The position numbers were made by a program, and so were the translations under genes. The notes under the pieces were generated by a model that was given only the letters and a program-made list of their open reading frames with translations, ran no database searches and was not told where the DNA came from. A stretch of 64,000 nt of DNA from Dehalococcoidia bacterium (GTDB taxonomy: Bacteria > Chloroflexota > Dehalococcoidia > Lucifugimonadales > QGNO01): positions 959,042 to 1,023,041 of the forward strand of contig OZ252212.1 in assembly GCA_965248955.1 (NCBI GenBank). The letters are read 5' to 3'. How positions within the stretch are numbered: the first letter of the stretch is position 1; each line of letters begins with the position of its first letter. Of this stretch, positions 11,162 to 33,118 are shown piece by piece.

Positions 11162-11585
11162 CCCGCAGCTTCGCAGTTCGAGTGACAAGGGTTCGGTGAC
11201 GGCACGGCTGGCAATTGCAATGTCGTATGCCAGACGAATCCCGCCAAGCCGGAAAGACCGATATGTGTGCTCCGGTCAGCAGGAAGGTTGTCAGGTAAGT
11301 CCGGTCACGATCTGTCCCGACACCACCCTCGCACACCTGTGAGGGAACGTTTTCTTGGCTCGAAACGTATTATCAAGTATGGGCTCGTTCGAAGGTGTCA
11401 AGAAGTCGCCGCAGTGGGTGCAGAGGAACATCGCGATGGGCTTCGTTGCTATCGGGGAACTTTTCCCTGTTCCGGTGCGTCTTACTCGTTGCAGGCTCAC
11501 ATTTTGGGCGGGACAATAAATGACGCACCAGGACGAGGCCATCCAGAGGCATTGCGATTCCAGATAGAGGAAGACGGTTTACACG

Positions 11586-12563: not shown

Positions 12564-12668
12564 CGTCCTGAGCGGAGCGTCCGGGGACGGATCGTCGGCA
12601 TACCGGATGGGGTTGATGCCCGAGTCCGGATCCAACGCCTGCCGCCGGCGCCAAACGAGGTTTATGCC

Positions 12669-13844: not shown

Positions 13845-14029
13845 GATGCATCGTCCTCATTGGGCCGCTGGCCATTCTCCTGTTCCTCGTGGCTGCCTGC
13901 TCCAATGGGACGCCATCGGCTCCTGATGCACCGCCGCCTTCGGAAGAGGCCACGCCAACGGTCGCGCCGACCTCGACGGTCATCTCAGGTCCACCAGACT
14001 GGATTCGAACCGTGGCTTCGACTGGTTAG
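13841..14029 (+). pseudogene. Truncated lipoprotein gene (signal peptide plus ~40 aa only)
   Basis: The GTG start overlaps the upstream stop (GTGA). Signal peptide with lipobox LFLVAAC is followed by a short TP-rich stretch. The frame then runs straight into repeat copy 3 (ccaccagactggattcgaacc) and terminates. Confidence 0.4.
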
Positions 14030-14181
14030 GCGCGCCTGCCTTACCGCGGCCGGAGGCTGGCTCCCGTGGACTCTTAGTCAATGGTGCCGTCCGCCGGGGG
14101 GGTGCTTCCTACTACGTACTGGCGTCAGTCCCACCAACTATGAGTAGCGCAGTTTTACGTGTCTTTTGTGTATTGTGAATG
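13988..14181 (-). repeat. Dispersed repeat family, copy 3 (long, diverged, ~190 nt)
   Basis: Outer box ccaccagactggattcgaacc and inner core cccaccaactatgagtagcgcagttttacgtgtcttttgtgtattgtgaatg. The right flank matches copy 11. Confidence 0.7.
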
Positions 14182-14200
14182 TTTTAAATGTGGTGCTGGC

Positions 14201-14228
14201 TTTACTGCAGAGTTTTCGTTGCGATTAC
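14201..14228 (-). repeat. Dispersed repeat family, copy 3b (core-only fragment)
   Basis: tttactgcagagttttcgttgcgatta matches the copy 1 core and flank ccgcagtttttcgttgcgatca. Confidence 0.5.
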
Positions 14229-14239
14229 TTCTTCGCTAT

Positions 14240-14352
14240 GCAGACTCCCCCTTACATCACAAACCGACTGGCTGGGAGATTCAGCTTCATTTCTACCCGA
14301 AATCTTCAGATCGACCGTCCAAGAGTAGCTCAGTTTATTGTGTCGATTGAGA
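14240..14352 (-). repeat. Dispersed repeat family, copy 4
   Basis: aaccgactggct...atcttcagatcgaccgtccaagagtagctcagtttattgtgtcgattgagaaatgggg. The right flank gtcgattgagaaatggggatggtgtat is shared with copies 7 and 10, next to a recombinase 3' remnant. Confidence 0.7.
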
Positions 14353-14629
14353 AATGGGGATGGTGTATCTTGGCCTCTTCATCCACTGGTGAAAGTAGGC
14401 TTTTTCAGCCACCTGCTGATGGCCGTGTGATTGGCCAGCCTCTTATTCACATCATACGTGCTTGGCCCCGATTCTGGCGAGTGAGATAGGAACGCCAAAC
14501 CGATAGGGAAGGGACCGACGTGTCGGCGACTCGATGGTCCCCTATGAGGGGGTGCTTCTATAGTCTGCAATACGGTACGTGTAGGCACAAACCCCCGCCA
14601 GTATCTTGCACTCTCATCCTGCAGATAAG

Positions 14630-16633: not shown

Positions 16634-16654
16634 CCCCGTGCCGACGGTGTCGCT

Positions 16655-17027
16655 TAGCAGCCCTCAACAATCAAGTCAAGAGCGAGGCCAACATCGCCGC
16701 TGAACATGGCCTCTCGCCGGTCTTCTTTGCTATCTATGAGCTAATCGAAGGCCGCCTAGAGGAGGTGCCGCCATGTCCGTAAGTGAAGAGAGAGTGACCT
16801 ACAGAACCACGTTCGACGAGGATACCAAGTGCGTTGTGCGGCAGGTGGAGTCGGTGGTCGTCCGCCACAGCGGGGTCGTCGACTGGCAGTCCAATGAAGA
16901 AGTCAAGCGGCTGATGCGTCTAGACATCAAGCGCGAGCTCAGACAGACCGACGATTACACGGAAGACCAACTGAAGGAGCTAGCGAGTCGGGTCGTAGAG
17001 CTGGCGCAGCGGAGGAACGGGCGGTGA
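16655..17027 (+). pseudogene. C-terminal remnant of a type I restriction enzyme R subunit (HsdR), frameshifted
   Basis: AAEHGLSPVFFAIYELI in one frame is followed by VVDWQSNEEVKRLMRLDIKRELRQTDDYTEDQLKELASRVVELAQ in the next. This resembles the HsdR C-terminal domain. No helicase or nuclease part is present. Confidence 0.55.
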
Positions 17028-17752
17028 CCCTGGTGGACAGCGTCCGCTACGGCGACACGACTATCGACTACGAGGTGCGCCGCAGCGCACGGCGCAGGAA
17101 GACGGTGCAGATAACCGTGGACGGCGGGGCCGTGCGGGTTGCGGCGCCCATGGCAACGCCCGCCAGTGAGTTGCAGGCCATCGTGCGGAAGCGGGCTCCC
17201 TGGATACTGAGCCACGCTTCCCAATCGACGTTGGAGGCCGCACCTAAGCGTTTCGTGAGCGGCGAGACGTTGCCCTACCTGGGCCGCAACGTCCACATAC
17301 TCGTCGAAACCGCTAACGTGGGCCGCCCAATCGTCCGTTTCGACCACTGGCGCTTCAGGGTTGCTGTACCGGAGACCCTGAGTGGTGAGGACCGCTACCA
17401 ATCGATTCGCAGGGCCGTTGTCCGGTGGTATCGGGACCGCGCCGCAGAGCGGCTGGTGGAGACTGTGGAACGCTGGTGGCCTCGGTTAGGCCGTGGAGAG
17501 ATGTCACGTGTGCTCATTCGTGACCAGCACCAGAGCTGGGGGAGCTGCGCACCCGATGGCACTCTGCGTTTCAACTGGCGTGCCGTCATGCTGAAGCCGG
17601 CCCTCATTGAGTACGTGGTCATACACGAGTTGGCGCATCTGACTCACCGCAACCACTCGACGGACTTCTGGGACTTGGTGTCCAAGGCGATGCCGGACGC
17701 TAAGCAGCGACGCCTGTGCTTGCGGGAGGAAGGCCGTAGGCTTCCCTTGTAA
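17024..17752 (+). CDS. DUF45/YgjP-like zinc metallohydrolase (M48 superfamily)
   Basis: 242-aa ORF with IDYEVRRSARRRKTVQITV at the N-terminus and HELAHLTHRNHSTDFW (HExxH) near the C-terminus. The GTG start overlaps the stop of the HsdR remnant (GTGA). Confidence 0.85.
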   Translation: MTLVDSVRYGDTTIDYEVRRSARRRKTVQITVDGGAVRVAAPMATPASELQAIVRKRAPWILSHASQSTLEAAPKRFVSGETLPYLGRNVHILVETANVGRPIVRFDHWRFRVAVPETLSGEDRYQSIRRAVVRWYRDRAAERLVETVERWWPRLGRGEMSRVLIRDQHQSWGSCAPDGTLRFNWRAVMLKPALIEYVVIHELAHLTHRNHSTDFWDLVSKAMPDAKQRRLCLREEGRRLPL

Positions 17753-17782
17753 TCCCCTGGCCGTGTACGTTCTTACGCTCCC

Positions 17783-18415
17783 TCATTTGATCCGAGGTAA
17801 TGGGGCGGTGTACTGCCCGATGCACCGTTGACTTCCTTCCCTGCGGGCGTGCCTCATCCGCACCTCGTCGGGCGCGAGGATGAGGACGGCGCTGGGGCGG
17901 GGCACATCCTCCCTGAGCCTCCAGAGCCGCTTGGAGAAGCTCGTCCTGTCGGAGGTGAGTCCCTGCCTGACGACGGCGACGGTTCGCCCGTCGGCCAGGA
18001 CGATAGCGGCGTCCATAGGCATGGCCCGGTACCAGCGGAACCGGATGGGGTGGGCGATGTTGGAGATAGTGGCAGCGAGCCGGTAGATGACTGCGGCGGC
18101 ATCCAGCCGCTCCAGCAGGACGCGCTGCCACCGGGCCGAGACGGGATAAAGTCTTAGGAGCTCGTCCACGGTCATGCCCTCGTCCCCGGCCAGCCGGTGC
18201 AGCCCAGATGGGGTGAGATAGAAGCGGCGCGTTGGCGGCGTGACGTCCGTGGCGTGGGGGACGGAGGCGGCGAGGCCCTCGACCTCAAATTTCTCGACGC
18301 TCTCGTAGACCGAGCCCCGAGACCAGCCGGAGACGGCGACCAGCTCCAGCCGGTCGAGAAAGGGCATGGCTGCCAGATGTCCCAGTAGCTCTTCCTGGCA
18401 CTCGGTGAGGGTCAT
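17783..18415 (-). CDS. Hypothetical wHTH protein (replication-relaxation-like, mobile-element type)
   Basis: 210-aa ORF. The N-terminal LLGHLAAMPFLDRLELVAVSGWSRGSVYESVEKFEVEGL...RRFYLTPSGLHRLA resembles MarR-like replication-relaxation proteins. The family assignment is tentative. Confidence 0.45.
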   Translation of the reverse strand: MTLTECQEELLGHLAAMPFLDRLELVAVSGWSRGSVYESVEKFEVEGLAASVPHATDVTPPTRRFYLTPSGLHRLAGDEGMTVDELLRLYPVSARWQRVLLERLDAAAVIYRLAATISNIAHPIRFRWYRAMPMDAAIVLADGRTVAVVRQGLTSDRTSFSKRLWRLREDVPRPSAVLILAPDEVRMRHARREGSQRCIGQYTAPLPRIK

Positions 18416-18633
18416 GCGCCCTGCTCCTCTTCAGGAGCGTCTTGCTCCTTCTTCGTCTCGGTTGCGCCAGCCGCCTTGTCCCGCTTGGTTCGCTGATTGC
18501 GCCGCTTGGAGGGCTTGTCCCGTTTCTTGGGAGCCGCGCCATTGCTGGGCGGGGTCTTATTGCCCCTCTCCAGGGCCGCAATCGCCGCCCGGTACTGCTC
18601 CAACAGCCGCTCCGTGCCCCAGGCGGCGTCCAT
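18412..18633 (-). CDS. Small basic/acidic-tailed hypothetical protein
   Basis: The stop overlaps the next gene's start (ATGA). I placed the start at the internal Met (MDAAWG) because the longer ORF, which runs to 18747, overlaps a better-supported HTH on the other strand. Confidence 0.3.
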   Translation of the reverse strand: MDAAWGTERLLEQYRAAIAALERGNKTPPSNGAAPKKRDKPSKRRNQRTKRDKAAGATETKKEQDAPEEEQGA

Positions 18634-18787
18634 TCTCAATGTGAGTGAGGAGACCGTTCGCCGGAACATCAGGTCGAAGCGCCTGGTGGCTTTGCGACGG
18701 GGAACCCAATGGTTTGTCCAGCACGCAGTCCTTGTGCGCTTCGCCAAAAACTATGATCCCAAGACGGGCAATATAAAGGAGGAGTGA
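18614..18787 (+). CDS. Excisionase-family helix-turn-helix DNA-binding protein
   Basis: 57 aa from a GTG start. PQAASILNVSEETVRRNIRSKRLVALRRGTQWFV fits the MerR-like excisionase HTH pattern. Confidence 0.5.
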   Translation: MPQAASILNVSEETVRRNIRSKRLVALRRGTQWFVQHAVLVRFAKNYDPKTGNIKEE

Positions 18788-18959
18788 TAGGGACCTGGGT
18801 GACGATGTGCTTACGATTCTCTCTAGGACTCCGAGCCTCACAGTTTGTCGGGCTCGTCGAAATGAGGCCGCTCAAGCTCGATGCGGACTTGTGGAGGCTG
18901 CTGAAAGAGGTTCTGGAGCAGACGCTCCAGAACTGTGTTCGGCTTAGGTCCCTCGCGCC

Positions 18960-20354
18960 ATGAGCAGCCACCGGACTGTGCCGATGCGCGATGATGCCTG
19001 GCGGGCCGGTGGTGACAACCTTGCGCCGACCCCCGTGACTGACTGGCCCCAACCCTGGTTGGGACGCCTGCTGCTCGTCTCCCTGCTGGTGATGCTGAAC
19101 CTGCCGATGACCTTCACCTTGATTACCCGAACAGACCCATACGGGTTCTTCGCACTGAAGTCCGTATCGGCCTATCCTCTGCCGCTGGTTCTGTCTACCG
19201 GACTGAGTTCGGCTCTTGCCTTGGTGGGGTACGTTTGCTATCGCTGGCTCCGGGGGCGACAGTGGTGGTTCACGGGAGGTCATTGGAGTCCGCTGACCAG
19301 GGGCGTGGTTTTGTGTGTTCCGCCTGTGCTTCTCGCATACCTACCGATCATCGTCCTATCGAGCCACGGGTGGAAGGGAACGCATCTGGCGTTGGGAGCG
19401 GTGATTGCCGGAGCGCTGTGCGTCATCCACGCCCTCAGAGACCCGGAGATGAGCCTTGATCCGGCTCAGGCTCGGTACTGGTTCATCTGTGCCCTGGGCT
19501 CGATCCTTGTGTTCCTCGTCCTCTGCATCGGCGCGATGGTCGTGCTGTACAAGGTCGAGCAGTTCCCCGCGTCCGGCAATATGCTGTGGACATGGGAATA
19601 CCGCTGGCCGGAACTGGGATATCCCCCCGAAGAGTATGACACCTGGCACCGCGACGGCCTCCTGGCCTTTACGGCGATAGGAGTGGCTTTCATGATCGCG
19701 GCGCTGGGTGGAAGCATGTTGGGGTCGATTCTAAGGTGGACGCGGTCGGCGGAGGGCGGCGGCATTGCCCGTCGTACACCGGCCACCAGGCAGCAGAATC
19801 CGGACGCACCTCCTTGGGTCGCCCGAATCGCTCGGCAGATTGAGTCCCTGAGCCCATCCACTGGGAATGAAGCGGAGTATGTCGCCGTGTTCAATGGGTA
19901 CGAGATTGAAATCACGGGCGGCCAATATCAGGGTTTGGTCGGTGCCAAGTTCGATTTGCTCCATGACGTTGACCTGCTTGTAGACAAGGCTGCTGGCAAC
20001 GTGTTCCTTCATACTGATGGGACGTGGGCCAAGCTCGACTTTCGCGTTCGCGACAAAGCCTCGGCCATCCGCAGCGGTCCCTTCTCCCTGTTGTGCATCT
20101 ACGCCCGCAGTCCCGGTAGGCGTTTCGCCAACGGCGAGTTGAGGACCCTTCTGGATAGGGAGTTAGGCAATCACGTGGAGCTCAATGTACGAGACTTCGT
20201 ATTTCAGCTTCAGAGGAGAACTCCCCGGCTGCCCGTAGGACGTGATGCAACGGGGTCTTTCTTGGACGCAGGGGCGAACGTGTGCTTCCTGGACCTGCAG
20301 CGATCGCCAACGGACAACGGCGGCGCTCAGGCCAACGGGCCGCAGCTCCTCTGA
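18960..20354 (+). CDS. Polytopic membrane protein with C-terminal OmpR/PhoB-type winged-helix domain
   Basis: About 270 aa with 6-7 hydrophobic helices. A cytoplasmic domain follows, ending in FSLLCIYARSPGRRFANGELRTLLD...NVRDFVFQLQRR (Trans_reg_C-like pattern). Confidence 0.55.
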   Translation: MSSHRTVPMRDDAWRAGGDNLAPTPVTDWPQPWLGRLLLVSLLVMLNLPMTFTLITRTDPYGFFALKSVSAYPLPLVLSTGLSSALALVGYVCYRWLRGRQWWFTGGHWSPLTRGVVLCVPPVLLAYLPIIVLSSHGWKGTHLALGAVIAGALCVIHALRDPEMSLDPAQARYWFICALGSILVFLVLCIGAMVVLYKVEQFPASGNMLWTWEYRWPELGYPPEEYDTWHRDGLLAFTAIGVAFMIAALGGSMLGSILRWTRSAEGGGIARRTPATRQQNPDAPPWVARIARQIESLSPSTGNEAEYVAVFNGYEIEITGGQYQGLVGAKFDLLHDVDLLVDKAAGNVFLHTDGTWAKLDFRVRDKASAIRSGPFSLLCIYARSPGRRFANGELRTLLDRELGNHVELNVRDFVFQLQRRTPRLPVGRDATGSFLDAGANVCFLDLQRSPTDNGGAQANGPQLL

Positions 20355-20697
20355 ATGCTGCTGTGCCATCGCTGGCAGCCGGGGCTAGTCGACGGGGTAG
20401 ACCCTCCGATGGAGATTTACCCCTCTGAACGCCTGCAGTTCTACGTTTTGCGACGTACACGCTCACTATCCGACGCCTACTCCACTAGGCAACTAGAGGA
20501 TCGCGCGAGAGAATGTAGTGTCGGGCGAGCGCAATTCGGAGAACCGGTCTGAAGGCCCGGCATGCGGGGTTAGGTCGCGGCCTCGCCCGCACCCATGTGC
20601 GGCCGCGGTAGACTTCGCCGGAGACGGCGGTCAGTTCCGGCCGGTACAGGAAGGGCACTAACGCAGGGTGCAGTAGAAGCTGGATGGAGGTAGGCGC

Positions 20698-21093
20698 TTG
20701 GCAAGTTGGCGAAGCTCTCTTGTGATGGCGGGGTTGACTGCGGCGGGCTGTAGCCTATTTGAACAGGACCGGGAGCCTTCTCCGGCTCCGACGGATGTAC
20801 CTACGCCACAGCTCACAGCTGATGTGCAGGGAGAGACCACACCCGAATCTGCGGAGGGGCTGGCTCTTCCTCGTGCAGCTCAGTATCAGTTCGTGGCCTT
20901 AGTGCCCGTCAGCGTTGGAGGAGCGCGCAAAACGTACCGAGACTTAGGGTGCACGCGATGCTCCAATGTGCTAGCAGATAGCCCATACCAAGAGTTTGTG
21001 CTAATTGGCGACCGCCTCTATGACGAGAGAAAGCCGCATGCCGAACGTGAGTTGGGAATATGGAGGGCAATTTGTATAAGGCGGCGCACATGA
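20698..21093 (+). CDS. Small hypothetical lipoprotein
   Basis: Lipobox LTAAGC. Its stop overlaps the ATG of the downstream giant gene (ATGA at 21090-21093), which suggests translational coupling. Confidence 0.5.
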   Translation: MASWRSSLVMAGLTAAGCSLFEQDREPSPAPTDVPTPQLTADVQGETTPESAEGLALPRAAQYQFVALVPVSVGGARKTYRDLGCTRCSNVLADSPYQEFVLIGDRLYDERKPHAERELGIWRAICIRRRT

Positions 21094-24000
21094 CACGATG
21101 GTTGGCTTACGGGATATTGACCGTTGCGCTCGCATGTCTTCTTGGGGGCTGCAACGGGGACTCAGGCGCACCTGAGCCAACCCCTACCGGAGCTGAGTCG
21201 AGGGGGCTCACGGCCACGACGGAACCGAGCTCCACACTGACGCCAGAACCAACCCCCACGGTGGAACCAACTCCCACACCGACGCCAGAACCAACCCCCA
21301 CGGTGGAACCAACTCCCACACCGACGCCAGAACCAACCCCCACGCCTACTCCAGAGCCTACGCTCAAACCCATCGATCCGAATCTATCCATCCTGGACCA
21401 GTTCCCAGCGATAGAGCGTAGCTGTCTGTTACTCGATATGGAAGAGAACCGCTTGTACCGGATCTTCAACCAGGAATCCAGTGCGACGGCCGAAGAATTC
21501 GAGGCCATAGCAGGTTGCATAAGCAGGGACACCGTGACCGCCATGTATATCGGTGCGCTTGCGGAGGGGTTGAGTGTGAGCGGCGAGACGTCGGCCTGTG
21601 CGGTGGGCCGACTGGAGAAGATGGACAAGGACCTCCTAATGCTAGCGTCGATAAACTCCGAGCATGAAACCGCGGTTTACCTTGGCCTTGGTTATGACGA
21701 TGAGGCGCTGCAAGACTTGGGGGCGTCTATTTCGTTGTCTGTGCTCCTCTGCATGGACAAGGAAGAGTGGACGGCCCTCAGCCCATGGGGTCTCAATGTC
21801 GATGATGTGAGCATAGATGCACTCAGATGCTTCCTGAACGAATTGGGGCCGCGGGGCCTCTACGAGTTGGATGCTGCTACCGAGGGCGCAACGCCATCGC
21901 TTGAGCTGTTCTCAGCGGCGGGGAGTTGCGGGATAGACCTGGAGTCGTTGCTGTCAAAACAAACGAGGCCAGAACCCGCACCGACGGTGAGGCCAGCAGT
22001 TCCCGTGCCAACCGCAACCCCCGTGCCGACGGCTGCACCACAGAGGGAACCCGAGGCGACTCCCACCGCAGCGCCAGCGGCTACGGCAGTACCAGAGCCC
22101 ACAGCTGCTCCGACCGCCACTCCAACGGACACGCCCGAGCCGACTCCTACGGACACGCCTACGCCCGCCGCAGTTGATAGGGCCGCGCTGGTGGCGCTCT
22201 ACGAAGCGACGGACGGAGCTAACTGGACGAGCAACCACAACTGGCTGAGCGACAGGCCAATCGGAGAATGGCGCGGCGTAATCGCTGACCTCAGCGGGCG
22301 CGTCACCGAGCTGCTCCTCTCTGAGAACCAGTTGAGCGGCGAGATACCGGCCGAGTTGGGCAACCTCGCCAACCTTCAATACCTGTTCCTCTCTAAGAAC
22401 CAGTTGAGCGGCGAGATACCGGCCGAGCTGGGCAACCTCGCCAACCTTCAATACCTGTTCCTCTCTAAGAACCAGTTGAGCGGCGAGATACCGGCCGAGC
22501 TGGGCAACCTCGCCAACCTTCAATACCTGTTCCTCTCTAAGAACCAGTTGAGCGGCGAGATACCGGCCGAGCTGGGCAACCTCGCCAACCTTCATTCCCT
22601 GCTCCTCTCTGAGAACCAGTTGACCAGGTGCCTACCCGAAGGGTTGCGAGAGATACAGGAAAGTGATTTCAACATCATGTCCATTCGTCCGCCCTTGTGC
22701 GGAACAACCCCGGCGAGCATGATCGCGGCGGGCGGCACAATCGCAGTCCTCCAGTCTCTTGAGTCACTGTCGGGCGCTCATCGGAGAGATGGCACAGAGT
22801 TTGAGTGGTCGCAGGTGTCGGGTCCGCCCGTTGAACTCCTCAATGCGAATGCTGAGTATGCTCGGTTCACGGCCCCGGTGGTCGTTGAAGACACCATCTT
22901 GGTGTTTGTGCTGAAAGCCGAATATCAGAACGACGTCACGGTGATCGATACTGTGCCGATACGCGTCGTTCCCATGAGAACGGAGAGGGTGTTGGCTGCT
23001 TTGGTGGACTTTCTTGACGTGGACCCCAGAGAAAGACCCTTCACCAGAGAAGATATCGTCAAGCTCCTTGAGGCTAATGACGATTCATTGAGCAATTTCA
23101 TTGCTCAGACCTCGCGCAATTTGGTGAGCGTTGACTTTGACGTCCTGGACTGGATCACTGTCGACAAGAACAGGACGGACTACCCGTTAGGTGGTGGCAC
23201 CGTGGTGAAGGACGTCGTCAGCAGGATGTCCGACTTTGCCGACTTGAGTCAGTATGACAAGGTGATGCCGTTAATCTTTCCTCTCGAAAAAGGATATCCC
23301 GGATGCCAGGCTTACCTGTATAAGGACCACTGGAACACGCCAAACGGCCGCTTCCGATTGGGTGCCTTGTGGCTGAGCGGCTATGACATGGGTTGTGTAC
23401 GAAAAGGTAGGATTGCACACGAGTTTGGACACACATTCGCGTTCGTACACTCATATGTGATTCTCTGCCACAGAGAGCCGCCCTTGCCGGCGAGCATGAC
23501 TGACCCCACTGACAAGAACAGCTCCTGCTATACCGTATATGCCGGGGAGAAAGAGGAAGCTAGCATTATCGCCAACCAAGACTTTGACATGCTGGGCGGC
23601 GACCATCGATACGAGAGCTTCTTTCCGGTTCACTTCCACGCAACATGGCAGGATCGAGCCGGATGGTTGGCCGAGGCCCAGGTCGTTGCTGCGAACAGCG
23701 CCGGCGAGTACTGGCTCACCGCTTTGGAATCCCTTACTCCCACACCGAAGGCTGTGAGGATATTCTTGGGAACCGATCACGAGGGAAACTCCCTATACTA
23801 TCTGATCCAACATCGTGAGTTCAGCCCGTGGTCCATGGGTAGCCAGGCGGGGTCTTCGTGCCAAGCCGATGTGAGGCTTGAAGCCTCCAACATATTTAAG
23901 CGTGGGCAATTCAATACTTACTTTTTCAATGGGTATATCGATGGCGTGAGAGTGGATTCCATATCACGCCCGGGTAAGCCGTTATGGGACCCTTACCGTG

Positions 24001-24425
24001 GCATTCGTATCGAAATACTTGACTGCATAGATACTCCAATAGGTGAGGTTGTCAGGATGCAAGTCAACTTTTCCAAACTGGATATTGACCCGCGGGTAGT
24101 CGCCATTTTCGATACTGCCGGAAAAGCGACGATAAAGATGACAAACAACGGCAGCGTACCGATTGACGTTGGCTCTGCCTCGATCGGGGGCAGACATCCG
24201 ACCGCATTTGTCGTTGATTCTGACGAATGCAGTGATTCCACACTGAAATCGAAAGCATCGTGCGAGATCATCCTGTCGCATGTCCCAACCGACACTGAGG
24301 ACGATGAACCCAGCAATCACGGTGTGTTGAAGATCCCGAACAATGACGCATTGGCACCCGAGATGACGGTGAGTCTATTTGCGGCGAATGCAAACCGATC
24401 ACAGCTTCCGCCGACCCGGAAGTGA
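21090..24425 (+). CDS. Large surface lipoprotein: Thr/Pro repeats, leucine-rich repeats, C-terminal HExxH metalloprotease-like domain
   Basis: Signal peptide with lipobox LLGGC and EPTPTVEPTPTPTP tandem repeats. NQLSGEIPAELGNLANLQYLFLSK occurs four times (plant-type LRR). IAHEFGHTFAF lies in the C-terminal region. I placed the start at ATG 21090; the ORF track uses 21060. Confidence 0.85.
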   Translation: MTRWLAYGILTVALACLLGGCNGDSGAPEPTPTGAESRGLTATTEPSSTLTPEPTPTVEPTPTPTPEPTPTVEPTPTPTPEPTPTPTPEPTLKPIDPNLSILDQFPAIERSCLLLDMEENRLYRIFNQESSATAEEFEAIAGCISRDTVTAMYIGALAEGLSVSGETSACAVGRLEKMDKDLLMLASINSEHETAVYLGLGYDDEALQDLGASISLSVLLCMDKEEWTALSPWGLNVDDVSIDALRCFLNELGPRGLYELDAATEGATPSLELFSAAGSCGIDLESLLSKQTRPEPAPTVRPAVPVPTATPVPTAAPQREPEATPTAAPAATAVPEPTAAPTATPTDTPEPTPTDTPTPAAVDRAALVALYEATDGANWTSNHNWLSDRPIGEWRGVIADLSGRVTELLLSENQLSGEIPAELGNLANLQYLFLSKNQLSGEIPAELGNLANLQYLFLSKNQLSGEIPAELGNLANLQYLFLSKNQLSGEIPAELGNLANLHSLLLSENQLTRCLPEGLREIQESDFNIMSIRPPLCGTTPASMIAAGGTIAVLQSLESLSGAHRRDGTEFEWSQVSGPPVELLNANAEYARFTAPVVVEDTILVFVLKAEYQNDVTVIDTVPIRVVPMRTERVLAALVDFLDVDPRERPFTREDIVKLLEANDDSLSNFIAQTSRNLVSVDFDVLDWITVDKNRTDYPLGGGTVVKDVVSRMSDFADLSQYDKVMPLIFPLEKGYPGCQAYLYKDHWNTPNGRFRLGALWLSGYDMGCVRKGRIAHEFGHTFAFVHSYVILCHREPPLPASMTDPTDKNSSCYTVYAGEKEEASIIANQDFDMLGGDHRYESFFPVHFHATWQDRAGWLAEAQVVAANSAGEYWLTALESLTPTPKAVRIFLGTDHEGNSLYYLIQHREFSPWSMGSQAGSSCQADVRLEASNIFKRGQFNTYFFNGYIDGVRVDSISRPGKPLWDPYRGIRIEILDCIDTPIGEVVRMQVNFSKLDIDPRVVAIFDTAGKATIKMTNNGSVPIDVGSASIGGRHPTAFVVDSDECSDSTLKSKASCEIILSHVPTDTEDDEPSNHGVLKIPNNDALAPEMTVSLFAANANRSQLPPTRK
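21243..21345 (+). repeat. 42-bp tandem repeat (about 2.4 copies) encoding PEPTPTVEPTPTPT
   Basis: ccagaaccaacccccacggtggaaccaactcccacaccgacg is repeated identically at 21243 and 21285, and a partial third copy follows. Confidence 0.9.
22317..22604 (+). repeat. 72-bp tandem repeat, 4 copies (LRR units)
   Basis: Units start at 22317, 22389, 22461 and 22533. Units 2 and 3 are identical over 72/72 nt. Units 1 and 4 differ at a few positions. Confidence 0.95.
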
Positions 24426-24485
24426 AGCCGATGCTCTCGGCCCATCGGGAGTCGAAGTTCCGGTGAGGATATTATCATTTATGTC

Positions 24486-24812
24486 ATGGGAAATACCTTT
24501 AGATATAACGAGAGAGTGACTCCTAATGAATTGGGTGATGGTCGAATAGTTTTTGATCCTGAGGCTTGGGGTGTAATGTATGTAACTTCCGATGGTAGAG
24601 ATCCTGGAGGAGATTTTGCTGCGTCTGCTGACTACACTGTAGATAAAAACGGGAGGAGATTTACTTTTGGAGAGCCAAAACTCGTTTCCCTTGACGAAAT
24701 AAAGTTTCCATTTAGGGTCAGGCCGAGCGTCGAGCTCGCCTATGGACCGGCCACGACACCGCCAACGGCCAGCGACGAGACCCCGGAGCCGCAGCAGACG
24801 CTGTTCTCCTAG
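24486..24812 (+). CDS. Hypothetical small protein in a low-GC islet
   Basis: 108-aa ORF. The AT-rich segment at about 24440-24720 contrasts with its flanks. I recognised no domain. Confidence 0.3.
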   Translation: MGNTFRYNERVTPNELGDGRIVFDPEAWGVMYVTSDGRDPGGDFAASADYTVDKNGRRFTFGEPKLVSLDEIKFPFRVRPSVELAYGPATTPPTASDETPEPQQTLFS

Positions 24813-25244
24813 GCCGAGTTCATGGCCGAGGAGCCGGTGAAGCCCAAGGGCCGGAGCCGCAATGGAGGCGTCTTTGCTCGAACTCCATGTCGCTGTGGCC
24901 ACTACGAGCCCTCCAACCCTGGCGGGCTGGAGGCTCGTGGGCCAAGCCGGGTACTGTGTGACTCGCGCCTGTTTTGTTACAGCGAGACCTCCCATCGAAA
25001 AGTTCGCAGTACAGTACACGTAGGCCCGCCAAGGAAGGCTCGAACCATCATGCGGTCCGACGTTGAGGTGGATTACCGGACATCGTGAAGAATGAGATGT
25101 TCTAGGGGCTCGACTGGAATCGGGTGTTACAGAGGCATGGAGCGTAGCGAGCACTAAGACCGACGGTATTGCCCTCACAGCGGTTGTATCGCTAGCCGTG
25201 ACCTTCACTTGCCCAAGGCTCTAGCGCTACCCATCGCTAGCTAC

Positions 25245-25285
25245 GCTCACCGCCCACGAGTACCGCATTTTCTGTTTCTATTGCC
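25245..25285 (-). repeat. Dispersed repeat family, copy 5 (core; long form about 25024-25290)
   Basis: ctcaccgcccacgagtaccgcattttctgtttctattgcc. It is preceded by a long-range stem (gagcgtagc...gctacgctc) and an outer box ccaaggaaggctcgaacc at about 25030. Confidence 0.75.
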
Positions 25286-25530
25286 TCTCACCCATGAGCA
25301 GTGGAGAGTAACATACGTGCGCATTGCGGGAGGAAGGCTGTGCTGGGGCAGCAAGCTGGATGGTCATGAAGCCTCGCCCGGAGAGGATTATAAGTTCACG
25401 TCCGTCAGCAGCAGCCGCTCTCACGGGTGCGTTTTGCGGGACGATGGCGCGGTCCAGTGTTGGCGATGGCCATAAACGAGGGAGCTGGAGTCGCTCTGGT
25501 TGGACCATGACATCGACAACGGTATTCAAG

Positions 25531-25570
25531 TTCACCGCCCACGAGCACCGCAATCTTCTGTGTCGTTGCC
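25531..25570 (-). repeat. Dispersed repeat family, copy 6 (core)
   Basis: ttcaccgcccacgagcaccgcaatcttctgtgtcgttgcc. Confidence 0.7.
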
Positions 25571-25783
25571 CTCAACACCGGATACCGGGTGGGCGGCGAC
25601 ACCGAGCGGACACGATTACCAGCGCTACCCACGCCGTAGACGAACTGGTGCGCAACACGTCTTATGAGTTCCGCGTGAGCGCATACGCGGACGGCGACAC
25701 CTACAAAGACGAGTAGGGTGGCGCAGAGGTATCCGCAACGACCGGAGTCTGAAGCTAAGCCCTAGAGAAGCGACTCTGCCCAT

Positions 25784-26007
25784 TCAGGGAATTAGCCGCC
25801 AACTCCAGTTCCACCACTCCCAGCGGCATCCAAGTCCACCGCCCAAGAGTACCTCAGTTTTTGTAGTCGATTGAGAAATGGGGATGGTGTATGTCAGAAC
25901 GGCCTCTTCTCCCACCACTTCGATGCCCTCCACGAAGTTGCGGATGAGCGCCTTGTGCTCAGGGAATGTCCCTTCCTTTAGAAACTCACGGAAGTCCGCC
26001 ACGTACC
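25784..26007 (-). pseudogene. C-terminal fragment of a large serine recombinase gene (copy A)
   Basis: YVADFREFLKEGTFPEHKALIRNFVEGIEVVGEEAVLTYTIP is the typical extreme C-terminus of large serine recombinases. No catalytic or zinc-ribbon part is present. Confidence 0.55.
25826..25875 (-). repeat. Dispersed repeat family, copy 7 (core)
   Basis: gcatccaagtccaccgcccaagagtacctcagtttttgtagtcgattgag. It overlaps the 3' tail of the recombinase fragment ORF. Confidence 0.75.
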
Positions 26008-26022
26008 TATTCACTAGTGGTG

Positions 26023-26332
26023 GAGCGTCCTGAGTGTGTTGGTGAAAGGATCCAGCACCTGTGTTTGGACAAGGGGTACGACAATCCACCGGGCCATGGT
26101 GGCTCACGGGTACCTGGGACACGTCCGGCGCATAGGGGAGGAGAAACTGGACTCTCAGAGTGTGAAGCGCCATCCGGCGCGGCGGTGGGTTGTGGAGTGC
26201 ACCTTGGCCTGGTTATCCAAATGCCGGGCCATATTGGTGCGCTACGACAAGAGGGTATCCAACTACATCGGCCTGATTCAATTGGCGTGTGCCCTTTTCT
26301 GGTACCGCCGCCAGTGGCAACTGAAGTGTTGA
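26023..26332 (+). mobile_element. 3' fragment of an IS5-family DDE transposase gene, frameshifted
   Basis: HLCLDKGYDNP in one frame is followed by GYLGHVRRIGEEKL...ARRWVVECTLAWLSKCRAILVRYDKRVSNYIGLIQLACALFWYRR in the next. It starts exactly where direct repeat A ends. Confidence 0.75.
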
Positions 26333-26341
26333 GATAGTATT

Positions 26342-27376
26342 TTAGTTCGTAGCAGGACGCCCAGAGACGTCCACCTGGCCGTAGATATCCTCTAGGGCCG
26401 CAAATATCTCGGCTTGAATGCCATCTGCGCCTTCACTGTACAGGTCTTTGGGCCCGCCTATCTCGTTGTTCACCCCCAGGTAAGACTGCGACATCTCAGC
26501 AAAGAACTCCCGTCCGCCTTCCACCCTCATTCCAAATGCGTTCGGCCATAACCCGGCTTCCCGGGCCCTGCCATACAGCCCCAGCCACACTTGGCGAGTC
26601 TCATCATCGAATCCAAGGTTCTCAATGGCGTGGGCCCATTCGTGCACGGTAATATCCTCCGCCCAGAAACGGGTCTGGTCTTCAACCAAATCAAGCAGAT
26701 TTTCCTCTGAGGTCACGGTGGTGGTTTGCTCCGGAACGCCGCCTGCTCCCCGCACCCTGAACGAGTCGTACGGATTGCCGTTGAGGTCCAGCCTCCCTCG
26801 AAGGAACGCCAATTCCGGGATTTCGGTGATATAGCCGTCCTTGGGGATTATTGCCAGTGAGGCTCCCGCTTCCGCCATCCGCTGGGCGATGTCCGGCCGG
26901 TGGGACAGCATTGTGCGGACGATGTCGGCAGCGACCTCCAAGGCCTCTGGCGCCACCGCCCCGGAGGCCTTGACCCGAATGCCATCCACATCTACAACCT
27001 GTGTGTAGTACTGCCCAGGAGTAGCCGTAGGCGCGGAAGCAGGCGTGGGAGTTGGAGTGACAGTCGGAGTCGGTGTTGCCGTAGCTGTAGGGTCAGGAGT
27101 GTTGGTTGGTGTAGGTGTTGCAGTAGGCGTAGGAGTAGGAGTAACAGTTGGCGTCGGTGTTGCCGTAGCTGTAGGGTCAGGAGTGTTGGTTGGTGTAGGT
27201 GTTGCAGTAGGCGTAAGAGAAGAAGGAAGAGATGCAGGTATAGTTAGAGTTACGTCAGGTGTCGGTACAGGGACTTCAGACTCCCTACTTTGGTAACAGG
27301 CAGCCGATGCTGCTAACGCGAGCAGTGCTAGCGCAGTGTTCCTTATCCCAGCTCCGCTCAACCAGCGGGGGTTCAT
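26342..27376 (-). CDS. Secreted lipoprotein with Thr/Pro linker and HExxH zinc-metallopeptidase-like domain
   Basis: I placed the start at MNPRWLSG. Lipobox ASAAC, a duplicated TP-rich linker, and VHEWAHAIEN in the C-terminal domain. Confidence 0.7.
   Translation of the reverse strand: MNPRWLSGAGIRNTALALLALAASAACYQSRESEVPVPTPDVTLTIPASLPSSLTPTATPTPTNTPDPTATATPTPTVTPTPTPTATPTPTNTPDPTATATPTPTVTPTPTPASAPTATPGQYYTQVVDVDGIRVKASGAVAPEALEVAADIVRTMLSHRPDIAQRMAEAGASLAIIPKDGYITEIPELAFLRGRLDLNGNPYDSFRVRGAGGVPEQTTTVTSEENLLDLVEDQTRFWAEDITVHEWAHAIENLGFDDETRQVWLGLYGRAREAGLWPNAFGMRVEGGREFFAEMSQSYLGVNNEIGGPKDLYSEGADGIQAEIFAALEDIYGQVDVSGRPATN
27045..27220. repeat. 84-bp tandem duplication inside the Thr/Pro linker coding region
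   Basis: gtcggtgttgccgtagctgtagggtcaggagtgttggttggtgtaggtgttgcagtaggcgta occurs at 27069 and again at 27153. Confidence 0.85.
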
Positions 27377-27484
27377 TTTTACCTCGTATAAAACTAAGGT
27401 CACGTCCCATAGAGTGGTGTAAGAGTACGTCATCCTGTTGATATCGTCTAGGCCGCTGCCTCTGCGAGTTCAGCTCTGGGTAGA

Positions 27485-28374
27485 GGAGCGTAGCGAGCAC
27501 TAAGACCGACGGTATTGCCCTCACAGCGGTTGTATCGCTGGCCGTGACCTTCATGCCCAAGGCCCTAGCGCTACCCATCGCTAGCTACGCTCACCACCCA
27601 CGAGTACCGCATTTTCTGTTTCTATTGCCTCTCACCCATGAGCAGTGGAGAGTACCATACGTGCGCATTGCGGGAGGAAGGCACTGTGCTGTGCTAGGGC
27701 AGCAAGCTGGATGGTCATCAAGCCTCGCCCGGAGAGGATTATAAGTTCACGTCCGTCAGCAGCGGCCGCTCTCACGGGTGCGTTTTGCGGGACGATGACG
27801 CGGTCCAGTGTTGGCGATGGCCATAAACGAGGGAGCAGGAGTCGCTCTGGTTGGACCATGACATCGACAACGGTATTCAAGTTCACCGCCCACGAGCACC
27901 GCAATCTTCTGTGTCGTTGCCCTCAACACCGGATACCGGGTGGGCGGCGACACCGAGCGGACACGATTACCAGCGCTACCCACGCCGTAGACGAACTGGT
28001 GTGCAACACGTCTTATGAGTTCCGCGTGAGCGCATACGCGGACGGCAACACCTACAAAGACGAGTAGGGTGGCGCAGAGGTATCCGCAACGACCGGAGTC
28101 TGAAGCTAAGCCCTAGAGAAGCGACTCTGCCCATTCAGGGGATTAGCCGCCAACTTCAGTTCCACCACTCCCAGCGGCATCCAAGTCCACCGCCCAAGAG
28201 TACCTCAGTTTTTGTAGTCGATTGAGAAATGGGTATGGTGTATGTCAGAACGGCCTCTTCTCCCACCACTTCGATGCCCTCCACGAAGTTGCGGATGAGC
28301 GCCTTGTGCTCAGGGAACGTCCCTTCCTGTAGAAACTCACGGAAGTCCGCCACTTACCTATGCACTAGTAGGTG
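27485..28374. repeat. Direct repeat B (~890 bp), partner of 25139-26022
   Basis: See repeat A. It contains family copies 8-10 (cores at 27590-27629, 27882-27921 and 28177-28226). Confidence 0.9.
28156..28353 (-). pseudogene. C-terminal fragment of a large serine recombinase gene (copy B)
   Basis: MADFREFLQEGTFPEHKALIRNFVEGIEVVGEEAVLTYTIP. A stop codon immediately upstream replaces the Tyr codon seen in copy A. Confidence 0.55.
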
Positions 28375-28499
28375 TCGGTAGTATCGCAGGCGCTGAGATA
28401 GCGGCTTTCACGCAAAGAACGAGAATCTCGCGGCCATGAATGCAACCTGCAGCTGCAGGCCGCCTAACACTGTGGCGATACCGCCGAAAGGAAGAAGCG

Positions 28500-28851
28500 G
28501 GGGGTCGGCGCGCACGCTCTTTCCCATGCCCAATGCCGAGCATGCCGCAATGACGATGGTCAGCAACGTTCGGGTCGGCTGCTATATTCAAGTACCACGC
28601 TGGATGGTAGTCCTAGCCGTAGTTCGAAGCAACGATAATTGGTCGCCTGACTCTTCAAACTGGAAGTACATCAAGGGCGACGACCGCGGCTTGCCGCTCC
28701 TGCGTCCCTTAGTCACCAGGATAAGGATTCTGTGCCCTTCCAAGCGGCTCAGAAGGCGTCCGTTGGAGAGGCGAAACAAGAGCCGATGCACCGGGACGAA
28801 GAACCATGTGATGATGAGGCGTCTATAGGTCAGTACGGCGGGCTCATTCAC
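28500..28851 (-). pseudogene. DUF385 / deazaflavin-dependent nitroreductase-family gene, disrupted
   Basis: ILILVTKGRRSGKPRSSPLMYF is followed, after a frameshift, by IIVASNYG-stop-DYHPAWYLNIAADPNV. There is one frameshift plus an in-frame TAG. Confidence 0.5.
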
Positions 28852-30352: not shown

Positions 30353-31501
30353 ATGAAGGAATTATATACAATGCCGCCACGTTTCCCACAGCGAGCCGAT
30401 TCGGTGGTACTATTGCCGCGTATGTCGTGGGAAACGTTCAGTAACGCCGGGTACGTAGGCGCGGCTATTGGTGGAGCCGTCTTCGCTATGTCGCTCGCCA
30501 TAGCCGCGGCAACTGCTTTTGTGGTTCGATTTGTCGCTGCCCGCCTGGACTCGAGCACCCCTTACGGCGTCGGAGGCATCGCCCTCAGATCGATTCGAAA
30601 CTCTCTCTCGGCCTTCGTGGTCGTTGTCGGCGCATATGTCGGACTGGGCTTCGTCGAACAGTTGGACCAGTGGCACGCCGAAGTGCAACAAGGCTTCACC
30701 GTTCTCGTCATCCTGATCGGTGCCCACGCTCTCTCGGCTGTTAGCGGCGCGACGCTCAATTGGTACATGGTCAACATCGCGGCACGGACGGAGACATCTT
30801 TCGACGACCGGAGCCTACCGCTGCTGCGTCGCTTCCTGCGGGTGGCCATCTACGGCCTAGCGCTCGTCCTCATCCTCGACACCCTTGGCTACTCCGTCGG
30901 GCTGCTACTCGGTGGCCTCGGTATCACTGGGCTCGCAGTCGCACTGGCATTGCAGCCTACGCTGACAAACTACTTCGCCGGCACCTACGTTATGTCGGAT
31001 CAGGCCATCAAGTCTGGAGACTACATTGAACTCCAAGGCGGGCCGGCCGGGTACGTGGTTGAAGTGGGCTGGCGCACCACGAAAATCAGAACCTGGTTGA
31101 ACACCCTGGTTATCATCCCGAACTCGGTCATGGCCGATACGATCATTACCAACTACCAGGGGCCCGACCCAGCACTCAACATCCTCGTCTCGGGCGGCGT
31201 CAGCTATGCGAGCGACCTCCAGCAGGTCGAGGAAGTGTCGCTAGATGTGACCCGGAGCGTCATTGCCGACAACGCCGAAGCCGTGAAGAGCATGGACCCG
31301 TGGTTCGGCTTCGACTCTTTTGGCGACTCGAACGTGAATTTCTGGATATTCCTGCAGGCCACAGACCGCGTTGGTTCGTTTGTGGTGAGCAACGACCTCA
31401 TCAAGCGGCTCCACGCCAGGTTCGCCGCGGAGGGCATCGAGATCAACTACCCGGTTCGCAAGATCGTCTTCAGTGAGGAAGCCCCCAGCACATCCCCCTG
31501 A
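30353..31501 (+). CDS. Mechanosensitive ion channel (MscS family)
   Basis: Transmembrane helices followed by ALQPTLTNYFAGTYVMSDQAIKSGDYIEL...GYVVEVGWRTTKIRT. The start may lie at a downstream Met. Confidence 0.85.
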   Translation: MKELYTMPPRFPQRADSVVLLPRMSWETFSNAGYVGAAIGGAVFAMSLAIAAATAFVVRFVAARLDSSTPYGVGGIALRSIRNSLSAFVVVVGAYVGLGFVEQLDQWHAEVQQGFTVLVILIGAHALSAVSGATLNWYMVNIAARTETSFDDRSLPLLRRFLRVAIYGLALVLILDTLGYSVGLLLGGLGITGLAVALALQPTLTNYFAGTYVMSDQAIKSGDYIELQGGPAGYVVEVGWRTTKIRTWLNTLVIIPNSVMADTIITNYQGPDPALNILVSGGVSYASDLQQVEEVSLDVTRSVIADNAEAVKSMDPWFGFDSFGDSNVNFWIFLQATDRVGSFVVSNDLIKRLHARFAAEGIEINYPVRKIVFSEEAPSTSP

Positions 31502-31560
31502 GGGCACTAACCGAGATGACCTGCCTCCTGATCACCACATAAGCTGGTCCCTTGGACGCT

Positions 31561-32091
31561 TCACTTCCCTGTTTCACTGGTCGCCCGTAACGTCTGCTCA
31601 AGGCTTTCCAGTTTTTCGCGCAGTTCTGAAACGCTTTCCTCGACATGCTGTCCCGCCGTGTCTATGACGATACCGGCTTCCCAAGGTTCATACTCCCGTT
31701 CGCAGACCTCCTGCCACGTAGGTAATCGGTGTCCCGCGATGTCGGCTATCCGTGTTTCCACTCTGCGCTGGTGCTCCGCCTGGTCGGAACAGACGATCCC
31801 GATCTCGATGCACCGCTCGCCTGCTCGTTTGGCGACATCCCGCCAAGCGGCTCGGGTTGACCCCACTGGGTTCACGGAATCGGCTATCACGGTGCGGCCC
31901 AGTCTCAGATTGTCTTCGGCAATCGCATAGGCTACCACGTACCCCTCGGGCCCGGATACTGTTATGTTGGAGTTGCGCAGCGTCTGCTCGATGGAATCGA
32001 TGCGCAGATGAACAGCCTCTATGTCGCGTGCCAGTCCGGTGGCAATCGCTGTTTTCCCCACCGCCGGAAGGCCTCCGAAGATCAATAACAT
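31561..32091 (-). CDS. P-loop kinase (AAA_33-like ATP-binding protein)
   Basis: 176-aa ORF with Walker A GGLPAVGKT at the N-terminus. Confidence 0.7.
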   Translation of the reverse strand: MLLIFGGLPAVGKTAIATGLARDIEAVHLRIDSIEQTLRNSNITVSGPEGYVVAYAIAEDNLRLGRTVIADSVNPVGSTRAAWRDVAKRAGERCIEIGIVCSDQAEHQRRVETRIADIAGHRLPTWQEVCEREYEPWEAGIVIDTAGQHVEESVSELREKLESLEQTLRATSETGK

Positions 32092-32119
32092 CAGATCGTG
32101 GTTTCCAAGACTTCGTTAG

Positions 32120-32245
32120 ACAATCGACTGGCTCTCCAAGTGGCCACGCCTTCTACTACATCCATTCCAACTGCCCGCGGGTCGACTGTCCATAAACTCC
32201 TGAGTTTTTCGTGTCTATTGTGTATTGCGAACGTTCTACCAGAAC
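32120..32245 (-). repeat. Dispersed repeat family, copy 11
   Basis: caatcgactggct...gggtcgactgtccataaactcctgagtttttcgtgtctattgtgtattgcgaacg. The flank matches copy 3. It sits at the left edge of a low-GC islet. Confidence 0.7.
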
Positions 32246-32336
32246 ATCGTACATGAGAGTGTCACCCATGTTTCTTTAACATAAGACCTCTTATATTCAC
32301 TTTGACACAACATGGCAGGTGGTTTAGCATCAGTGG

Positions 32337-32948
32337 ATGCGTTGGCTTCGCACCCAATTGTCCCCAACATTGGCTGGCTTCGTTATTCTTGTTACGTCCT
32401 TGGGTTTTCTCGCTGATTTTCCTGTTGGGCGTTCCCGTCTGGAGGATAGTGTGAGTTCTATCTTCCCAATAGGTGCAGCATTGTTGCCATACATTGCTCT
32501 GGCCGGTGTTATCTTTGGTGGTGGGCAAGTGAGTCAATGGATAATCCGGAAAAGCATAGACTTATTGCATAATGGCCCAAGTGTTCGTAAATTTCGAGCT
32601 TTGGAAGGTCCTCTACGGCAGTGCAAGCATCACCTGATCGAGTACGTTGAAACGCCCTCCTCCTCCTCCTCCTCCTCCTCCTCCTCCTCCTCCTCCTCCT
32701 CCTCCTCCTCCTCCTCCTCCTCCTCCTCCTCCTTAGGTAGAGTATCCGACCGCTCTGCGCTGATAGTCGAGTTAAACTTGGTAATAAGACAACTTATAGA
32801 ACTCGACATACAAGTGCCTGACTTTGGTTACCTTATCAATCAGGAGCGGTCGCAGTCTTGGGTGGCCTACTTAGCAGCAACGGAAGAGTTAGCAAAAAGT
32901 GGCAGATTGCAAGATGCCCGAGAAGGCAATATTTACAAAGAACGTTAG
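32337..32948 (+). CDS. Hypothetical membrane protein with poly-serine tract
   Basis: 203-aa ORF in low-GC DNA. It has two N-terminal hydrophobic helices, about 25 consecutive Ser residues and a helical C-terminus. Confidence 0.45.
   Translation: MRWLRTQLSPTLAGFVILVTSLGFLADFPVGRSRLEDSVSSIFPIGAALLPYIALAGVIFGGGQVSQWIIRKSIDLLHNGPSVRKFRALEGPLRQCKHHLIEYVETPSSSSSSSSSSSSSSSSSSSSSSSSSLGRVSDRSALIVELNLVIRQLIELDIQVPDFGYLINQERSQSWVAYLAATEELAKSGRLQDAREGNIYKER
32658..32732 (+). repeat. (TCC)n trinucleotide microsatellite, about 25 uninterrupted units
   Basis: Read directly from the sequence. It lies in frame inside the 32337..32948 ORF and encodes the poly-Ser tract. Confidence 0.95.
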
Positions 32949-33118
32949 ACAATCCGCCTTTCGTAAGAAAGGTGCTTGGTCTTGACGATACGGCAAAGGT
33001 GTAAACAAAGATATGGACGTTGTCCCGATTGCTGACAGGCGGGACGATTAGCTGTCTTGCCGTTCAAGTCCTCCAGCTCTGTACTTCTTCTGAGTAACCG
33101 ACATCCTCAGCCACCCCC

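Follow-up and report, generated by a model that had tools for sequence, protein, structure and literature searches.

An apparent lineage-specific, in-frame expansion of a coding TCC microsatellite in a conserved orphan membrane-protein gene of a Dehalococcoidia bacterium

The framework of bacterial contingency loci has been reviewed (PMC9990875). According to the same review, prokaryotic genomes generally contain perfect short tandem repeats no more often than chance would predict, and most coding trinucleotide repeats vary little or not at all in length. A long trinucleotide tract is known from Mycobacterium leprae, where (TTC)n at ML2334 measures 63 bp, or 21 units, in the reference, and where the copy number distinguishes strains (PMC2271132). 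At the protein level, polyserine tracts of 25-58 residues have been listed for Saccharophagus degradans (PMC2386152), and long runs of a single amino acid tend to be species-specific and disordered (PMC5125637). Here we describe an uninterrupted run of 25 TCC codons in a 203-aa open reading frame (ORF) on a 64,000-nt stretch of DNA from a Dehalococcoidia bacterium (contig OZ252212.1, positions 959,042 to 1,023,041), the whole of which we call the window. Judged from sequence comparison, it is a coding microsatellite that appears to have expanded in frame, in one lineage only, within a conserved orphan membrane-protein gene. Events of this type are already known, and the present one stands out for its size and for the clear comparison with the ancestral state.

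The tract and the gene that carries it are as follows:
32658..32732, forward strand: (TCC)25, encoding 25 serines in a row (residues 108-132)
32337..32948, forward strand: the poly-Ser ORF, with an ATG start and 203 aa, belonging to an uncharacterised family of ~180-aa proteins with two transmembrane helices and a C-terminal helical domain

Positions 32658-32732 consist of 25 uninterrupted TCC codons, preceded by CCC and followed by TTA, in frame with the ORF (32337-32948) and beginning 321 nt downstream of its start; the protein around the tract reads ...HHLIEYVETP-S25-LGRVSDRSALIV... An earlier inspection of the letters (the sequence-only reading) had reported about 25 TCC codons here, and that count is exact. 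Tandem Repeats Finder returned a period-3 array (unit CCT) at 32656-32733, with 26.0 copies, 100% matches and zero indels, and the maximal pure period-3 run is 78 nt. A scan of the whole 64-kb window for runs of at least four identical triplets found none besides (TCC)25, so that the tract lies far beyond chance, and it has the form of a perfect microsatellite (head-to-tail units of 1-6 nt, well over chance length). TCC makes up 25.7% of the serine codons in 36 window genes. Opposite the tract, on the antisense strand, there is a 59-aa ORF with a poly-Glu run (32630-32809, reverse strand), which is almost certainly spurious, yet it could mislead automatic gene calling at this place.

The same site in relatives is short. 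Homologues were sought with a query in which the serine run had been cut to two residues, thereby avoiding low-complexity matches, and this search found 12 homologous protein clusters with 46-95% identity and full-length coverage. In 34 of 34 related proteins (cluster members included), exactly four residues stand between the proline and the leucine, mostly SSSS and otherwise SSYS, SSSP, PSSS or SSPS. The sequence-only reading had proposed looking for homologues of the flanking parts with or without the poly-Ser, and both flanking parts are present in these relatives with four residues at the site. In DNA, the 18 orthologous loci read CCG TCG TCC TCC TCC TTA, CCG TCG TCC TCA TCC TTA or CCT TCG TCC TCA CCT TTA. 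The unit number is 25 in the window versus 3 (plus TCG) across the 18 orthologous loci, pure TCC units numbering at most three in every one of them (18/18). Ten orthologous contigs from ten separately listed metagenome assemblies encode an identical 182-aa protein, which shows the short form to be stable in nature.

The closest loci, L001 and L013, show ~95% DNA identity on either side of the tract, with a synonymous distance (dS) of ~0.08, and the window allele differs from those of its relatives by 21 extra units and by a 5' border of CCC TCC instead of CCG TCG. A change of tract length in evolution, as the sequence-only reading had supposed, is borne out by the difference between 25 units here and 3 pure TCC plus TCG in the closest relatives. 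That reading had also named an invariant unit number, or an ORF that is not conserved, as what would speak against it; the relatives are indeed invariant (34/34), yet the window allele differs from all of them, and the ORF is conserved. That the short form is constant and the long form rare fits the review statements on prokaryotic repeats given above (PMC9990875).

We consider it fairly probable (about 0.7 for the two parts jointly) that the gene has long been resident in a Dehalococcoidia lineage, inherited vertically and present in single copy, and that its tract underwent a lineage-specific expansion, by slippage, from 3 pure units to 25, adding 21 serines to a loop. The ancestral state would have been a short imperfect microsatellite, TCG (TCC)3, encoding a mostly-serine turn, P-SSSS-L. 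The 5' border would have been purified in this genome only, either through two G-to-C changes (CCG TCG to CCC TCC) or through a single 6-bp deletion of GTCGTC within ACGCC[GTCGTC]CTCC, two routes that are indistinguishable here. The pure tract may then have been lengthened to 25 TCC by slipped-strand mispairing in replication, which is an established mechanism for such changes in unit number, and the turn would thereby have been enlarged to a loop of ~25 serines, with the frame unchanged and the long loop presumably tolerated. Such an expansion would postdate a recent split from the L001 and L013 lineages, since the flanks there are ~95% identical, dS is ~0.08 and the short form is present; the lack of any interruption in the tract likewise suggests that the expansion is recent. 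At 25 pure units, the tract should be far more prone to slippage than its short ancestor.

Several observations weigh against this history. The unit count of 25 is provisional, because a run of 78 nt is what a de Bruijn assembler with k=77 would output for any longer tract. The ORF, with every plausible start codon (eight variants), is absent from a collection of 15 billion proteins in which the adjoining kinase (listed below) is apparently present. Look-ups by exact sequence gave no record of the kinase as it reads in the window or of the epimerase. Among the relatives there are no intermediate alleles (5-24 units), and with none of these the expansion looks, from the alleles compared, like a single jump, which does not imply hypermutability.

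The codon substitutions show that the ORF is a genuine gene on which purifying selection acts. The ratio of nonsynonymous to synonymous distances (dN/dS, Nei-Gojobori) between the window and seven orthologues is 0.21-0.34, and over the first 38 codons dN is 0.13-0.15 and dS 0.42-0.60 relative to distant orthologues. Purifying selection on these codons implies that the long frame from 32337 is translated, and not just the one from a GTG at 32451. This internal GTG lies 38 codons in and is preceded by a strong Shine-Dalgarno-like GGAGGA (32441-32446); gene callers picked the equivalent internal GTG in several relatives, giving 144-aa products, and a shorter product without the first transmembrane helix might also arise from it. 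The ORF is accompanied by candidate signals for its own expression:
32302..32330, forward strand: promoter-like TTGACA-17 nt-TAGCAT, from a consensus scan (10/12 matches), function inferred
32955..32974, forward strand: terminator-like hairpin, 7 nt past the stop codon, from a consensus scan, function inferred

Both promoter-like hexamers are unchanged in the alignment with L001, L003 and L011. From the last base of the promoter-like site to the A of the ATG the distance is 7 nt, and a gap this short suggests a leaderless mRNA.

The family to which the protein belongs is small and of uniform size. Its profile, run against 1.84 billion cluster representatives, found 105 clusters at E<=1e-3, nearly all of 150-210 aa, and it scores the window ORF as a full-length member (hmmsearch, E = 1.5e-64); the same profile found no second copy of the gene in the window. 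The species-representative genomes in GTDB that encode the family are all titled Dehalococcoidia bacterium metagenome-assembled genomes. Pfam, NCBIfam, PADLOC and PHROGs returned zero family models for the ORF or for 63 family members, and matches to Tarp and to baseplate wedge proteins were set aside as artefacts of the serine run. More distant members directly adjoin IS1595- or IS3-type transposase genes (L017, 7222-8136; L018, 5096-5991; L019, 1119-2012) and, like the orthologues discussed below, have a lower GC content than their surroundings. The family may travel with insertion sequences (IS) or attract them.

The sequence-only reading had called the product a membrane protein, and two hydrophobic segments agree with this:
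32358..32426, forward strand: hydrophobic segment 1, residues ~8-30, putative transmembrane helix (Kyte-Doolittle 19-residue windows >1.6)
32448..32531, forward strand: hydrophobic segment 2, residues ~38-65, putative transmembrane helix (Kyte-Doolittle 19-residue windows >1.6)

Both segments are helical in both structure models, that of the window protein and that of the orthologue P0001. The stretch that follows segment 2 is basic (7 K/R versus 2 D/E), and by the positive-inside rule both termini, together with the ~110-residue C-terminal helical domain, are probably cytoplasmic. The AlphaFold2 model of P0001 (182 aa, 63 sequences) has a mean predicted local distance difference test (pLDDT) score of 85.2, exceeding 90 across most of residues 80-175, with helices at 10-26, 28-39, 44-77, 80-88, 90-105, 111-134, 148-167 and 170-175. 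In this model the P-SSSS-L motif forms a five-residue loop (106-110) that joins helices 90-105 and 111-134. The window protein's own model (13 sequences, pLDDT 65) keeps the same helices and leaves residues 109-130 unstructured at pLDDT <50, so the poly-Ser stretch is predicted to be disordered. Across the family alignment, the loop region varies in length and sequence. The earlier expectation that a change of unit number would alter a linker and not the frame holds as far as the frame is concerned, which every length keeps, while the segment itself forms a short turn that joins two helices of one helical domain and is not an inter-domain linker. Foldseek against PDB and BFVD gave only generic helical bundles (best E = 0.6). 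Designer PPR repeats were rejected as homologues, the PDB profile matches involving only the C-terminal helix-turn-helix and no single significant stretch.

The explanations that compete with a lineage-specific slippage expansion differ in how much of the above they can accommodate. An assembly artefact is improbable; under this explanation the true allele would be the ancestral four serine codons, or the true unit number would differ and might be larger. The 78-nt run does fall within k to k+2 for k=77, as de Bruijn output would if it crossed a collapsed repeat loop once, the allele is in no other assembly found, and the protein collection lacks the gene while apparently containing the neighbouring kinase. 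Nevertheless, a 9-nt seed does not lead an assembler to create a pure tract, which means that there must be reads with long (TCC)n, and the 5' border also differs from that of the relatives (CCC TCC versus CCG TCG), as expected of a real allele. Because of these two points, a complete artefact is unlikely. In addition, protein P0138 equals the window kinase at every residue past an alternative GTG start and is encoded on a single contig of 2,006,147 bp, a length that implies long-read assembly, in which 75 nt would be spanned by single reads; the window would appear to originate from that contig.

We regard it as similarly doubtful that selection keeps the tract as a hypermutable in-frame site whose length variants alter the spacing or flexibility between two helices and thereby modulate the activity or interactions of the protein within the population. 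The strict four-residue length in 34/34 relatives argues for a constrained loop, and a single expanded allele is known, whereas the pure and uninterrupted codon run, the position of the loop as the length-variable part of the family, and the variable or defence-type insertions (McrBC, GmrSD, IS) around the locus in relatives would all suit such a role. A bacterial counterpart of the "dynamic mutation" is again only a speculative idea and not a likely one. The loss of interruptions would here carry a three-unit repeat past a stability threshold, after which it would expand eight-fold and become a hypermutable in-frame length switch. If this were true, contingency-type variation would not be restricted to host-adapted pathogens, and the switch would be set in a membrane-anchored protein of an uncharacterised family, at an insertion hot spot for defence and mobile genes, in free-living Dehalococcoidia.

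It is quite unlikely that the expansion is deleterious and that the gene is being lost, with the 25-serine loop or the identical codons hampering folding or translation. In favour of this, the turn of four residues is strictly conserved in relatives, a gene caller apparently left the ORF unrecorded, and homopurine-homopyrimidine mirror repeats can form H-DNA and impede replication and transcription. The rest of the ORF is nevertheless intact, with zero frameshifts or stops, and the promoter-like hexamers are unchanged. The insertion lies in a surface turn whose flanking helices are still predicted to form, and TCC is a well-used codon in the window.

The remaining explanation is that of the sequence-only reading, which took the ORF for an acquired cassette marked by the repeat copy beside it, and it concerns the DNA immediately upstream of the gene:
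31530..32226, no strand assigned: window-specific segment of 697 bp, replacing ~220 bp (L001) or ~407 bp (L013) of unrelated sequence and lying outside the poly-Ser gene
31561..32091, reverse strand: AAA_33 P-loop kinase gene within that segment, 176 aa (Pfam PF13671, E = 1.1e-11)
32162..32237, forward strand: copy 11 of a ~75-nt repeat family (nhmmer E = 3.8e-14), at the right end of the segment

That copy 11 stands beside the ORF, just upstream of it, was reported correctly. The drop in composition beyond it is real as well: in 200-nt windows, GC is 0.44-0.52 across 32100-33100 versus 0.56-0.64 on either flank. With the tract removed, the ORF has a GC of 0.471 and a GC at third codon positions (GC3) of 0.441, the lowest among 37 window genes compared; the other genes have a GC3 of 0.556-0.834, and the window mean GC is 0.575. 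The orthologues, however, have the same property, their genes having a GC of 0.49-0.53 versus 0.56-0.62 for the locus (5-10 points lower), and distant family members behave likewise. The low GC is common to all of these and is therefore an old family trait, not a sign of acquisition. The order DAO - MscS - ORF - SDR epimerase - NhaA - RraA recurs in each of the long orthologous loci, and the ORF occupies the same syntenic position in 18/18 orthologous loci, including lineages only ~80-86% identical in DNA; neither the presence/absence pattern nor the differing sites expected of a mobile cassette were seen among relatives.

The BLASTN alignments of all relatives end at 31529, just past the MscS stop codon, and resume at 32227 (the L001/L013 group) or at 32295 (the others). 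By these alignments, the recently acquired DNA is the kinase-plus-repeat segment and not the poly-Ser gene. The AAA_33 kinase has 5732 homologues, and L024 carries an 82%-identical DNA copy of it in an unrelated context, where the homology stops at the gene. A 12-nt direct repeat, CGTTAGACAATC, is found at 32114 and 32943. It contains GTTAGAC, a match to the GTTRRRY core, at both ends of the low-GC block; an integron reading based on this match was rejected, and the repeat was judged coincidental because the copy at 32943 coincides with the conserved region of the stop codon, the copy at 32114 is internal to the insertion, and neither an attC-like palindrome nor, among the 32 window ORFs scanned, an integrase accompanies it. 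No inverted repeat or attC-like palindrome flanks the ORF, and a scan of 32 of the window ORFs for integrase or recombinase domains gave none. In what was scanned, the features of a cassette (an attC-like site, a promoterless ORF, a nearby integrase) are lacking, the ORF having its own conserved promoter-like site.

A horizontally acquired low-GC cassette bounded by copy 11 is therefore very improbable, for although the ORF is the lowest in GC and GC3 of the genes compared, a repeat copy lies 100 nt upstream of it, 10/11 repeat copies stand in DNA that relatives lack, relatives have insertion hot spots on either side of the ORF (GmrSD in L012, IS in L003), distant members lie beside IS1595 or IS3 transposases, and CGTTAGACAATC occurs at 32114 and 32943, the ORF with its promoter region and 3' flank is syntenic in 18/18 loci down to ~80% DNA identity, homology resumes at 32227 so that copy 11 is part of the kinase insertion, the low GC is common to orthologues, the downstream 12-mer is a conserved stop-codon region while the upstream one lies within the insertion and off its junction, and no attC-like palindrome, nor any integrase in the 32 ORFs scanned, was seen. 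The claim of an acquired cassette is contradicted by this synteny, by the gene's own promoter-like site and hairpin, and by the low GC of its orthologues. The more general idea that the repeats mark acquired DNA fares better, with 10/11 copies in strain-specific DNA, and it applies to the kinase segment and not to the poly-Ser ORF. The suggested check of GC did find the ORF lowest among the 37 genes compared, although the orthologues have it too.

The repeat family, of ~75 nt and with the core ATCCAAGTCCACCGCCCACGAGTACCGCAGTTTTTTGTGTCGATTG, has 11 copies in the window by nhmmer:
copies 1-6: 4385-4457; 10692-10764 (reverse strand); 14113-14183; 14294-14366; 25226-25299; 25512-25594
copies 7-11: 25814-25890; 27570-27643; 27863-27945; 28165-28241; 32162-32237

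DNA that the relatives lack (8637-28565 and 31530-32226) accounts for ten of the 11 copies, and the copy at 4385-4457 lies beyond the region covered by the relatives' loci. A search with nhmmer found zero copies in the orthologous loci of relatives, among them those with flanks ~95% identical. No consensus RNA fold was obtained for the family, its Rfam matches did not rise above noise, and an ORF remnant adjoining the repeat gave no plasmid match with tblastn. One weak match to the family in L018 abuts a resolvase gene fragment.

Elsewhere in the window, the ~20 kb at 8637-28565 stands where the closest relative, L001, has ~1.5 kb, and looks like a strain-specific island. It contains a 1121-aa protein with PT-rich linkers and 72-nt leucine-rich-repeat-type tandem repeats (21060-24425), an ABC-F ATPase, a DDE transposase fragment (26036-32) and a 750-bp duplication of 98% identity (25139-25892 / 27485-28243). 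Compared with the window, L001 and L013, the MscS gene (30353-31529) is inverted in L011, L014, L016, L022 and L023, and the breakpoint of this inversion is 31529, where the kinase insertion starts. Rearrangements recur in the intergenic space upstream of the poly-Ser gene. In relatives, a GmrSD restriction-type gene (L012, 10630-12423) or an IS transposase (L003, 10631-11412) has been inserted immediately after the orthologue, and McrBC genes lie a few kb from the orthologue in L001 (16316-19931). The locus is a hot spot for defence and mobile genes in relatives.

One 3.91-Mb contig, ctg820265_38x_l (ENA ERZ25071132), carries the syntenic block twice, at 2.23 Mb and 0.28 Mb (L001 and L022). 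The two blocks align to the same window region with ~95% and ~88% identity, and a paralogue on this contig was rejected because the whole syntenic block is duplicated. The contig probably joins two related genomes, related single-contig genomes being ~2.0-2.2 Mb. Rfam gave no match in the window or around the locus, no tRNA or tmRNA genes were found in the window, and scans of JGI metagenome contigs with the junction pattern and with the family alignment gave zero matches.

Long perfect trinucleotide tracts are rare in bacteria, and clear before/after pairs are rarer; here such a pair is seen in one gene, with flanks ~95% identical and 3 versus 25 units. If reads confirm the tract and show length heterogeneity, it would be a natural strain-tracking marker for these uncultured Dehalococcoidia, and it would also provide a simple case for the birth of a bacterial coding microsatellite. 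The analysis defines a small and previously unnamed membrane-protein family and corrects the acquired-cassette reading. The mechanism is otherwise ordinary, and a functional consequence does not follow from it.

Among described systems, the contingency loci of Haemophilus, Neisseria and Campylobacter are alike in having a pure short tandem repeat in a coding region; their unit number is changed by slipped-strand mispairing, as it probably was here. Unlike in those loci, the unit here is 3 nt, which makes frameshift and ON/OFF switching impossible, since every tract length keeps the frame; moreover, contingency loci belong to host-adapted pathogens, whereas here one expanded allele is known, from uncultured environmental Dehalococcoidia. 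Eukaryotic trinucleotide-repeat expansions resemble the present case in that a short conserved codon repeat turns pure and expands many-fold in one lineage, although the genome here is bacterial and no link to a phenotype is known. The polyserine linkers (PSLs) in carbohydrate-active enzymes of Saccharophagus degradans and Cellvibrio japonicus are similar as long serine runs that form a flexible segment between structured parts. PSLs, however, separate independent modules of carbohydrate depolymerases (catalytic domain, carbohydrate-binding module) and recur in many enzymes per genome, whereas here a single gene with no CAZy or other Pfam domain is concerned, the tract is absent from all orthologues, and the site is the turn between helices 90-105 and 111-134 of one domain. 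The nearest precedent at the DNA level is (TTC)n of M. leprae, likewise a long homopurine-homopyrimidine trinucleotide tract in a bacterial chromosome; that tract is intergenic, whereas (TCC)25 is translated as polyserine in a conserved protein.

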